This document shows, piece by piece, positions 9,001-12,000 of a stretch of DNA of 64,000 bases (positions are counted from its first letter, which is position 1; every line of letters begins with the position of its first letter). The position numbers are program-made. Source of the stretch: a virus (lineage: Duplodnaviria > Heunggongvirae > Uroviricota > Caudoviricetes). The DNA is taken from IMG/VR virus record IMGVR_UViG_2718218360_000002; one strand, given 5' to 3'.

Positions 9001-12000
9001 TTTTATGGATGGCTTTCTGTATTAGGCGTCGTTCGTCACGGGAAATTGGTGGTATGATCGACATTGCTCAGTCCGGTTGGTGATTTGTATTGATTTGGCG
9101 ATTGATCAGATCGCACAATCGGGTTGAGTTCCCTCTAAATGATCTACTATTCTGCGCAGCTATTTAGTGAGTATATATTTTATGCTTATAAATTAGATTA
9201 AAATAATCCTACAATTATTCTGATGGAGTATTGCTGTGGAGGATGGCTTTTTGTTAATTATCGAAAAGTAAGATATATGCTTTAGGGATAAAATTATGCC
9301 ATTTTCATTTAATTTGTCTTCTGGAAATTACTTGTCAACACAAGATGTTGAAGTTTTACAACGTGCGACCAGAGATCATCAAATGGAAAGACTCACAATA
9401 GGAGAAGATCGTTTTCTGTTCGCTATCAGAGTGCTATGGACGCTTTTATTGTAGATCCTGTTCAAGGGGAACTATATTCGGGTTTAAGCCATACAGAACT
9501 AGCCGATATCATTAGATTGGCTGATTCTGTTGAAAATCAATTGAATGGAGGCAATTCATTTCTTGATGTATTCAGTACATATATGGGGCAGGTTATTTCT
9601 GAATTTATGCATAGTAATGATAACAGAATTGAATTGTTACAGCGGCGATTACATTCATGTTCATTTTTAGTTAATATTGAAGAAATGTCTTACATAGATG
9701 AAGCATTACAGTGCCCGATTACGCTGGCAATTCCTCAACGAGGTGTTTTTTTAAGAAATGCTGAAGGTTCCAGAGTATGTAGTTTATATGATGAAATGGC
9801 TCTTTCTCGTATAATTAATGATGGGATGCATCACCCACTAAGCAGAGAGCCAATAACATTATCAATGCTTGTGGCCAGAGAGCAGTGTGAGTTTGATTGC
9901 AGTATCGGTCACTTTACGGTGAGGAGTGATTGTTATTCAGTGTAGACTCGGTACACGATTTTGTGTGAAGAGACTCTTATTAAAAGTTAGCATCAAAGCG
10001 GTCATCAAACTTGATAATAAAGTGACTCATTGCTATTCGCTGGTCCTTAAGGGATGTATCGTGAACTGAATAGCAAGTAGCCACCGTCCTGATTTCAACG
10101 CATTATCAGGCGCTTCTGAAGCGGCATACCTGCATGACAGGATGAGTGCAAAGGGGCGCTGTTACGATAATGCTAGGGCGGAAAGTTTCTTCCACTCACT
10201 AAAAGTCGAATGCATTTACGGCTAATATTTTATGAGTCGGGAAATAATGCAGACGGCTGTGTTTAATTAGATCTAGTGTGATTACAATCGGTGGTGCCGA
10301 CACAGTACTTGTGGCTGTCTCAGCACGGAACTGTTTTGAAAAACAGAACCTTGATTAGGGCTGTGTCCACATTACGTAGGTAGGATCACCCCACAGGCAC
10401 CACATGTCATGCATGGATTAGGATTGAATGATAAATCGTAAAGAAAACTGCAACACCTCGCGTGTAGCACCTGGTTAGCGAACTTTCGAAAGTACGAGTA
10501 TTGTATGATTTCCAGCAGTTATCAATTTTACGTATTAATCAGTGAATCAACAACTCGTCAGCAGACTCTCTTTGCTGTTGAATTTTTTGGAACGTGTATA
10601 GGGCAGAAATTTTTGTTTTGGGACATGGTTGGGACGCCGTAGTACATACGAACTCTGCCGAATAACGTATGATATTATTTTTTAATCTCTTGGAATACAT
10701 TATAGAAACAGAATGCTCTTGGGCGATTTTTAGTGATTGTTTAAATAGCCCTGTCATGCAGTTAAAGTGGCGGGCATCCTCTTCAAGGATGGTGATCCTC
10801 AACCGCACCCATTTAGGATGCGACTATTGTGGTAGAACAATGTAAACCATAATTAATCTGCGTGCGGATACATGCTTCATAGATAGGATATTCTGGTTTG
10901 GGTTGTGAATGTGTTGGTCATCGAGTGGACAATAAGGTAAGAGGAGTAACTCCTGCAAAACAAAAAAAGAGTTCAACAAAATCAATCAGTTAAAAACACG
11001 AGAGATCTGTATAAAAAAGCATCGTAAATTCTGTATTTTTCCTTTAAATATAATATGTTATTGAGTTTTGTAAAATCTACCAGTGTGGTACATGGATATC
11101 GATACCACGGCTAAGTATAAATCTGGTGTTACTACCGTGAAAGACTCGGTACGACTGGATCCGTGGGTGTTTATGTTCTCCGCAGGATATCGTTTTTAAT
11201 TTTCTCTGCAAAACCTCTGCAAAACCCCTCTGCAAAACTGGTCATCAAATGACCAGTTTTTTCCATTCCTTACCGCGTGCGTCGTTGTAAATATCGATCA
11301 TTTTTTGATTCGAATGGCCTAGCAAAATTTTGGTATCAACCCCCTGCTCTCTGAACAATCGCTCTGATAAAGATCTCTGCTCATGGAAAGAGGGAGGGGT
11401 GCCATTAGCACGCCAGTTGTAATCCACAGAATCCCGGGCTTTTTTAAATGCAACGGTTAATGTTGCTGGCTTAACCATCCCGCCGCGCTTAGCTGTCCCT
11501 TTCGCGTGATGGTGGTGCAATAGCCACGGACTAAGAACGCAATCGCGGCAGGATGACACCACATCATCCAGGGTGAGATTTAATTTATCGCAACGCAGAG
11601 CCAGAGGGATGGCAATCCGGGTTCCTGTTTTTTGCCGTTCGACATGAAGATAACCATCCCGGATATCCGAAAATTGCATTTTGCAAATATCTGAAAGGCG
11701 CTGGCCTGTCATCAGTGCCAGCAGCATACCGCGCTGTAAAAAGTAACCATCCTTTTCCGCTGCGTTATAAATCATCATCCACTCATCAAAAGTCAGTCGC
11801 TGTCTTGATATCCGTACCTGCGGTTTTTTTGCAGATTCTGCAGGGTTAAAGCCTGGCGGGACATCGCCCGTTTGCTGAGCTTCCCGGAAAACATCGATCA
11901 GTACTTTCCTGAAAATTTGTCCCATTCTGTTATGTCCTCTGGCCTTGTACTCTTCCAGTACTGATACCACATCTTTTACGGTTATGGCATCTAACGGTCT

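Follow-up and report, generated by a model that had tools for sequence, protein, structure and literature searches.

The described systems closest to the attachment region examined here are those of bacteriophage lambda, of phage 21, and of the prophages that integrate at the ompW gene of Escherichia coli (PPompW). In lambda, for which we read the layout of the phage attachment site (attP) directly from the sequence and use the established site names P1, P2, and P'1-P'3, P1 (AGGTCACTAA) shares the orientation of P'1-P'3 and is found ~137 bp leftward of the overlap region (~-142 to -133), P2 is inverted, and P'1-P'3 occupy +55 to +85, with P'3 overlapping the stop codon of the integrase gene (int). 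The GenBank record of phage 21 (OL657228.1) annotates an 'attP ... 3 subsites P1P2P3' with the consensus YYTTCCCCAAAA 12 bp past the int stop, followed by a terminator and a phage-borne 3' end of icd, and a fourth copy of the motif in the same orientation is found ~120-140 bp beyond the icd homology. For PPompW, the main text of Nakamura et al. (2021, PMC8112680) reports prophages of this type in 44% of 767 E. coli genomes and a 121-bp attachment (att) sequence, 81% identical to ompW, that was defined by aligning PCR-amplified attP with the prophage junctions (attL and attR) and the bacterial site (attB). Here we analyze a 64-kb stretch of the E. coli O157:H7 FRIK2455 genome (NZ_CP015843.2, 1824285-1888284; IMG/VR record IMGVR_UViG_2718218360_000002), referred to throughout as the window, in which three tandem repeats next to the int gene of such a prophage very probably represent the P' arm-type integrase (Int) binding sites of a lambda/phage 21-type attP of ompW-integrating prophages.

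The repeats are units of CTCTGCAAAAC (Table 1), which read GTTTTGCAGAG in the sense of int. The first two units are directly adjacent, two bases (CC) separate the second from the third, and the third runs into a hairpin at the end of int. The first-pass annotation of this DNA, made without database searches, had described three tandem units between the prophage edge and the int stop, and exact copies are indeed present at 11204-11238, at offsets of 10, 23, and 34 nt past the int stop and extending from +107 to +141 relative to the center of the attachment core. No other exact tandem triple of any word of at least 8 nt occurs in the window, and when the window was simulated 300 times with a first-order Markov model, only one simulation contained any triple of an 8-mer. 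The core does not contain the motif; within the att region, three copies belong to the P' arm and a fourth to the P arm.

Table 1. Features of the attachment region and integrase locus (window coordinates) and classes of arm-site motif among the surveyed integrase loci.
Feature	Position	Strand	Description
Three tandem CTCTGCAAAAC units	11204-11214, 11215-11225, 11228-11238	+	Exact copies; candidate P'1-P'3 arm-type Int sites
Common core/crossover interval CAGTGTGGTACATGGATATCGATACCAC	11081-11108	+	28 bp; identical in attB, attL, attR, and attP; unique in the window
Phage-borne copy of the ompW 3' end	11081-11201	+	Diverged; covers the last ~39 codons and the stop; is the 121-bp PPompW att sequence
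P-arm motif copy TCCTGCAAAAC	10951-10961	+	Co-oriented with the triple, at ~-146 to -136 relative to the core center; candidate P1-like site
Integration host factor (IHF) consensus match AATCAATCAGTTA	10980-10992	+	Exact match to WATCAANNNNTTR; possible bending-protein site
Perfect hairpin	11234-11262	both	12-bp stem, CAA loop; overlaps the int stop; T6 on the + strand, TTTTG on the - strand
int	11245-12375	-	376-aa heterobivalent tyrosine integrase; arm-binding N-terminal, core-binding, and catalytic domains
xis	12353-12601	-	Excisionase (Xis); PF07825 (Exc), E 1.3e-7, and RefSeq annotation; overlaps the int start
Motif class A, TTTTGCAG(A/G)(A)G			21 loci, window included
Motif class B (TTTTGGGG class), TTTTGGGGAAG			22 loci, phage 21 included; phage 21 motif given as GTTTTGGGGAAG
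Motif class TTTGATAA, TTTTGATAAC			15 loci
Motif class TTTTACTG, TTTTACTGAG			3 loci

The position of the repeats relative to the site of recombination was established from an alignment of ompW of E. coli K-12 (attB), attL and attR of PPompW, the contiguous attP of Escherichia phage 204576, and the window. A switch between host-type and phage-type sequence flanks the 28-bp block at 11081-11108 on both sides, and since no other block that is identical in all four att sites has this property, we regard it as the crossover interval. The alignment thereby places strand exchange within these 28 bp, which also hold an inverted repeat, GTGGTA(N12)TACCAC, whose arms are candidate core-type Int sites. 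In GenBank records of PPompW, 121 bp that correspond to window positions 11081-11201 carry the repeat_region annotation 'duplication due to insertion of PPompW'. In single PPompW lysogens the annotation shows ompW at full length, restored by the phage-borne 3' copy, in which the ompW stop codon is at 11196-11198. Because the repeats start 3 bp beyond the end of this copy, in phage-specific DNA, they lie in the P' arm. The first-pass annotation had set the repeats between the prophage edge and the int stop; the functional edge is at the core and not directly beside the repeats, as the 121-bp ompW copy intervenes. Its reading had been left exposed to a mapping of attL to some other place; the mapping now puts the att core ~100 bp to the left of the repeats, with the repeats inside attP and attL. 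Two PPompW variants, those of E. coli OkiPb01678 (L010) and ECAMP047 (L013), carry a 15-bp insertion in the ompW 3' copy; ompW is 654 bp long in these strains versus 639 bp, and the OmpW of the lysogens is therefore five residues longer.

The core and its P arm can be seen immediately to the left of the repeats because a further PPompW sits in tandem with the one that encodes the window integrase. Sequence related to the window was found in 1736 of 5426 complete E. coli genomes, and in most of these 1736 the match begins at window position 11081, where it overlaps a full-length ompW that is convergent with int. The window integrase belongs to the widespread ompW-integrating prophages. In FRIK2455, a first PPompW is located at ompW ~58 kb upstream, with its own int at NZ_CP015843.2 1777043-1778173, and its repeats and hairpin are identical to those of the window (NZ_CP015843.2 1776359-1778173; positions 16360-18174 of locus L096). 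Leftward of 11081, the window and the right end (P arm) of PPompW prophages share an identical sequence. The interval 10950-11260 is accordingly the junction of two tandem PPompW-type prophages, and this junction is in effect a complete attP that consists of the P arm of the first prophage, the core, and the P' arm of the second.

At its other end, the second prophage adjoins a 5'-truncated ydfJ at ~57284, followed by ydfI-ydfZ-rspR-ydfG-dcp (window ~57284-64000), a gene order that is presumably inverted relative to the K-12 map. The first-pass annotation had failed to find in the window a core shared with the right junction, which it placed near 58097. That position falls within ydfJ, and the observation stands: the window prophage is a recombinant of PPompW and the prophage at ydfJ (PPydfJ), is associated with a chromosomal inversion, and has its right end at ydfJ, which is why the window should hold no cognate attR. 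This agrees with Nakamura et al. (2021, PMC8112680), who describe recombination and inversion involving the ompW and ydfJ prophages. Because no cognate attR in direct orientation is nearby, the window prophage probably cannot excise with its own integrase. An attachment site of the transfer RNA (tRNA) type was also considered and was rejected, as there are no tRNA or tmRNA genes anywhere in the window. Clusters of type III effector genes (nleG/DUF1076 family, espM1, nleA), interspersed with insertion sequence (IS) fragments, occupy 6367-9945 and 54748-56748, at the far ends of the two prophages, and correspond to the exchangeable effector loci of PPompW that are described in the main text of the same study.

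If the three repeats are arm-type sites, the other arm of the attP might be expected to carry related sites, and the P arm supplies one candidate (Table 1). Its 9-mer CTGCAAAAC, at 10953-10961 (-144 to -136 from the core center), is oriented like the triple. This 9-mer has six matches in the window against 1.03 expected, of which four are in this att region, and none of 100 shuffled sequences reached six. We compared four divergent P arms, namely those of the window, of phage 204576, and of two IMG/VR contigs. To the left of the motif the four are unrelated; exactly from CTGCAAAAC onward they can be aligned, and the 9-mer itself is invariant in all of them. Homology that starts at an arm-type site is what is expected of the outer limit of a functional attP. 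To the right of the 9-mer, a block of ~40 bp (10962-10999) is nearly invariant among the four arms and reads AAAAAAGA.TT.AA.AAAATCA..CAGTTAAAAACA.

The IHF consensus match in the P arm is suggestive only as a site for IHF or another bending protein. Within 10940-11262 it is the sole match to the consensus at up to one mismatch, and the consensus has eight exact matches in the window against 2.55 expected. The match is exact in two of the four P arms, and the other two carry ATCAG, not ATCAA. The segment CAGTTAAAAAC (10989-10999), invariant in the four P arms, is a weak candidate for a further P-arm site in direct orientation. Between the 10962-10999 block and the core, GGTAT/CAAAAAA and TTGTTTTTTC form additional conserved patches, and these could be sites for Xis. 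We discarded GTTTTGTAAAA (11063-11073) as a candidate for an inverted P2-like site, since the other P arms do not conserve it.

Two matches to CTGCAAAAC fall elsewhere in the window. That at 560-568 (- strand) was considered as a further site of the ompW system and was rejected as a chance match within the remnant of a lambda-like attP, and the remaining one is at 39968; one chance match is expected in the window. The lambda-like remnant extends over 480-730 beside a degraded lambda-type int pseudogene (722-1648). Its P arm holds CAGGTCACTAAT and an inverted AATTGTGACTC, and GTAAGTCATTAT-TGGTCAAAAT-AAAATCATTAT adjoins the int stop of the pseudogene, in close parallel to the attP of lambda.

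The protein that would recognize these sites has the domain structure of a heterobivalent integrase. Residues 2-71 match the arm DNA-binding domain PF09003 (E 7e-22; score of 77.7 bits, cut-off 22), PF00589, the catalytic domain, matches with an E value of 1.1e-15, and the central core-binding domain PF22022 scored just under its cut-off. Residues 14-375 align with the full-length lambda Int structures 5J0N and 1Z1B (E ~4e-55). In that alignment, TGQR, KTG, FHExRSL, LLGH, and the Y of ...IYND... fall opposite the catalytic residues R212, K235, H308/R311 (H-x-x-R), H333, and Y342 of lambda Int. Sequence identity of the window Int amounts to 36% with lambda Int and to 50% with the Int of phage 21, its closest characterized relative.

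Comparison among PPompW-type elements shows where the attachment region tolerates change. In seven attL/attP variants of PPompW, which are 93-100% identical overall, the ompW copy varies at many positions, including the 15-bp indel in two strains, and the repeat units are intact apart from one base change in one unit of one strain. Substitutions also affect the spacer that precedes the third unit and its flanks, among them the first base of that unit. In one strain, E. coli 2547 (L014), there are four units. The 18 IMG/VR contigs that carry the site follow the same pattern as the seven PPompW variants.

For a broader survey, an alignment of four integrases from the clade served to scan a single genome of each species. 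This yielded 80 loci (L015-L094), with integrases 47-99% identical to the window Int, in Escherichia, Salmonella, Yersinia, Serratia, Xenorhabdus, Proteus, Providencia, Klebsiella, Pantoea, and other genera; with the window and three phage records (L007-L009) the set comprised 84 loci. Between two and five tandem repeats were identified within 260 nt past the int stop at 61 of the 84 loci, with three copies at 55 of them, two at three, four at two, and five at one. The copy-number variants among them are L039 and L050 with four copies, Yersinia pekkanenii (L024) with five, and L047, L053, and L060 with two. In nearly all of the 61 loci, and in all four motif classes (Table 1), the units are spaced 13 and then 11-12 nt apart in the sense of int (13 and then 11 in the window), a phasing shared by phage 21 and the 55 three-copy loci. 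A de novo search for repeats at 20 loci that lack these motif classes detected no comparable triple and only one weak three-copy chain, and base composition alone therefore does not produce such repeats.

The sequence type of the Int N-terminal domain (N-domain) sorts one-to-one with the motif class across 65 loci. The signatures include PGL-SCYTDARTKKVYWRYKHP in the TTTTGCAG class and PNL-YxKLDKRxGKxYWQYKHP in the TTTTGGGG class. The correspondence extends to four loci at which inserted DNA has displaced the repeats 600-1100 nt downstream: there, too, the class matches the type of N-domain. Identity of the N-domain is 0.78 within and 0.54 between classes, versus 0.71 and 0.60 for the rest of the protein. 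The classes differ most in the segment after P(G/N)L and at position 7 of the N-terminal tail, where the TTTTGCAG class has Y/F and the others have H/N. Together with ompW, class A is found in the window and at L015/L016, from Escherichia albertii and Salmonella; together with icd it is found at L017-L022, from Pantoea, Providencia, Xenorhabdus, and Yersinia. Since one class is used with different target genes, the repeats go with int rather than with the target.

Collectively, the PF09003 domain of the integrase, the location of the repeats in the P' arm, the P1-like copy in the P arm, and the phasing and class sorting that hold throughout the family bear out the suggestion of the first-pass annotation that the repeats are equivalents of the arm-type sites of lambda. 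Several observations weigh against this assignment. The P' sites are ~50 bp farther from the core than those of lambda, since the ompW 3' copy separates the core from the arm. On the P' side, from the core to the repeats, no sequence within one mismatch of the IHF consensus was found. The P arm yielded a single clear copy of the motif, and no inverted P2-like copy was found there. Finally, the co-variation of N-domain and motif is confounded by descent, because the C-terminal region of the integrase also sorts by class, if less sharply.

The hairpin that follows the third repeat was examined separately. The first-pass annotation had called it perfect and overlapping with the int stop, and so it is: its 12-bp stem (11234-11260) spans the TGA at 11245-11247, which falls where the left arm meets the loop. 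A core stem of 8 bp, CTGGTCAT-CAA-ATGACCAG, at 11238-11256 is extended by A-U pairs to the full 12 bp (AAAACTGGTCAT/ATGACCAGTTTT). It is the sole perfect 12-bp stem in the window, and one of 100 simulations yielded such a stem. The predicted RNA fold has a free energy of -14.4 kcal/mol on the + strand (z -5.7) and of -14.9 kcal/mol on the - strand (z -4.3). The stem is followed by U6 on the + strand, in the sense of ompW, and by UUUUG on the - strand, in the sense of int.

Sixteen of the 18 IMG/VR copies of the hairpin are identical, and the variation that bears on pairing amounts to one compensatory pair and one G.U variant. The former is in ETEC1717, where a C-to-T change in the left arm and a G-to-A change in the right arm replace a C-G by a T-A pair, the right-arm change being synonymous in int (GTC to GTT). 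The latter, in an IMG/VR copy (L098), is an A-to-G change in the left arm. Pairing is kept as G.U in the + strand RNA, but the - strand RNA would have a C.A mismatch, and the DNA is no longer a perfect palindrome. A second IMG/VR copy (L109) differs in the loop, which converts the int stop to TAA and so keeps a stop codon. In the relatives that integrate at icd, a G+C-rich hairpin directly follows the phage-borne icd copy, with its U-tract in the direction of icd.

From these features we lean toward the hairpin being an intrinsic terminator that works in both directions and is stronger in that of ompW. Some results speak against termination. The hairpin is absent from the output of a consensus scan for promoters and terminators (10700-12700), probably on account of a stem that reaches into the T run; the core stem is only 50% G+C; and the Salmonella relative L016 retains only the outer part of the palindrome. 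A search of 10500-12700 against Rfam gave only a chance-level match (NRON, 18 bits against a gathering score of 50). A more doubtful reading, although one that deserves some weight, is that the hairpin is a palindromic DNA site for a protein, or an RNase III site that controls the stability of the int mRNA in the manner of the sib element of lambda. The perfect 7-3-7 palindrome would suit a dimeric DNA-binding protein, the ETEC1717 change preserves the symmetry of the DNA as well as the pairing of the RNA, and failure of the terminator scan to call the hairpin fits this reading as well. In lambda, int is controlled through an RNA hairpin downstream of the gene, which again favors it. Against a protein site or RNase III site stand the T6 run after the stem on the + strand and the L098 variant, which disrupts the palindrome and the pairing in the int sense and retains a G.U pair in the + strand RNA. 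A role like that of sib is further disfavored by location, as the hairpin lies between int and the core, unlike sib in lambda; it is linked to int in both phage and prophage and therefore cannot couple int expression to the state of integration.

For the repeats themselves, three explanations other than arm-type Int sites were weighed. It is improbable that they bind some protein other than the Int N-domain, such as Xis, a nucleoid protein of the host, or a protein that regulates ompW or int. Units repeated in direct orientation about one helical turn apart would also suit Xis-type or other winged-helix proteins, and xis adjoins int and would co-diverge with it. The repeats, however, are positioned as are the P' sites of lambda and the annotated subsites of phage 21, a further copy is at a P1-like position at the outer limit of the P arm, and the motif class tracks the type of Int N-domain. 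For Xis in particular, the lambda sites lie in the P arm and not beside int (PMC4880445). Still less probable is that repeats and hairpin act as RNA in the 3' untranslated region (UTR) of ompW, for example as a small RNA derived from the 3' UTR or a stability element, and not as DNA sites. In every lysogen the ompW stop codon is followed by the repeats and then by the U6 hairpin, so that the repeats are probably transcribed with ompW, and the L098 variant retains pairing in the + strand RNA only. In the relatives that integrate at icd, on the other hand, the repeats lie beyond the terminator of the target gene and outside its transcript, and the repeats therefore follow int and not the 3' UTR of the target; there is also no match to an Rfam family, and the P-arm copy is outside any ompW transcript.

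The least probable explanation, and one that the comparative data bring close to refutation, is that the repeats are a neutral product of replication slippage without function. Slippage does occur, as is evident from the variable copy number (four in E. coli 2547, five in a Yersinia, and two at a few loci). Yet the phasing of 13 and then 11-12 nt is retained across genera whose integrases are ~50% identical, the motifs fall into four discrete classes, an isolated copy is found in the other arm, and none of the 20 searched loci that lack the motif classes has a comparable triple.

If the three repeats are arm-type sites, the N-terminal arm-binding domains of Int would bind the CTCTGCAAAAC motifs while its C-terminal domains bind the core, and this bridging, with DNA-bending proteins and, for excision, Xis, would assemble the recombination complex. 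The hairpin would terminate the reconstituted ompW transcript, with its stem followed by U6, and would terminate int less efficiently from the other side. The convergent ompW and int genes would thus be kept from reading into each other, and the phage would supply the terminator for a gene that the phage itself restores. Since the putative terminator comes after the arm sites, these sites would be part of the ompW 3' UTR. The P' sites abut the int stop across the clade and their distance to the core varies, owing to an intervening target-gene copy, which leads to a more speculative proposal that we consider unlikely. As the DNA that separates core and repeats yielded no IHF consensus, the complex may differ from that of lambda, for example by looping over the gene copy or by bending sites in the diverged ompW copy. 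In ompW lysogens, which make up about a third or more of E. coli genomes, the Int sites would lie in the ompW transcript ahead of the phage terminator, and occupancy by Int could affect formation of the ompW 3' end.

Arm-type sites are a textbook kind of feature, equivalent sites are already annotated in the GenBank record of phage 21, and the understanding of site-specific recombination is unchanged by those described here. PPompW prophages are landing pads for Shiga-toxin phages and effector genes, and knowledge of the full attP, with its 28-bp crossover interval, P1-like outer limit, and three P' sites, helps to predict which prophages are competent for excision, which is relevant for the degraded, tandem, or recombined prophages of pathogenic E. 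coli. In addition, the survey provides four natural classes of arm site that share a common geometry and each go with a recognizable type of N-domain, a set that can be used to test how arm domains read DNA or to build orthogonal integrases.

Among described elements, PPompW of Nakamura et al. (2021, PMC8112680) is the same element as the one in the window, and the type of strain, with tandem PPompW and recombination with the prophage at ydfJ, is described in the main text of that study. The whole 121 bp is treated there as the att sequence, and the alignment presented here narrows the crossover to the first 28 bp. Among the papers that we searched, none was found to describe arm-type sites or the hairpin for PPompW, and the term 'arm-type' is absent from the main text of PMC8112680. 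A search for arm-type sites of phage 21 or e14 likewise returned nothing specific, and the phage 21 subsites are known to us from the GenBank annotation. The predicted terminator resembles intrinsic terminators between convergent genes in that it is flanked by an A run and a T run, lies between ompW and int, and has a significantly stable fold. Unlike typical shared terminators, it is modest in G+C content and overlaps the stop codon and last codons of int.

The window shares with lambda an Int that has the arm-binding domain PF09003 and the same overall fold, three co-oriented sites of ~10-11 bp packed against the int stop, one co-oriented site ~140 bp beyond the core, and xis upstream of int. 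It departs from lambda in the motif, which is CTCTGCAAAAC and not (C/A)AGTCACTAT, and in the location of the P' sites at +107 to +141 and not +55 to +85. In contrast to lambda, neither an inverted P2-like site nor an H'-like IHF consensus was found in the att region of the window. Furthermore, attB of the window prophage is inside a gene, and the hairpin is on the int stop, whereas tI/sib of lambda is beyond att.

The likeness to phage 21 is closer. As in phage 21 and e14, attP carries a replacement 3' end for the target gene and attB is inside that gene. As in phage 21, three tandem repeats of the TTTTG type follow the int stop at intervals of 13 and then 11-12 nt, one co-oriented copy is present in the P arm, and a terminator hairpin, which in the window is predicted, serves the restored target gene. 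The two differ in the target, which is ompW and not icd, and in the motif, with GTTTTGCAGAG of class A in the window rather than GTTTTGGGGAAG of class B, and their N-domains differ accordingly. The order of elements is also distinct: gene copy, repeats, and hairpin with int stop in the window, versus gene copy, terminator, repeats, and int stop in phage 21, where the P' sites are more than 200 bp from the core. The att system of the window is thus a sister specificity class to that of phage 21, and not the phage 21 system itself.

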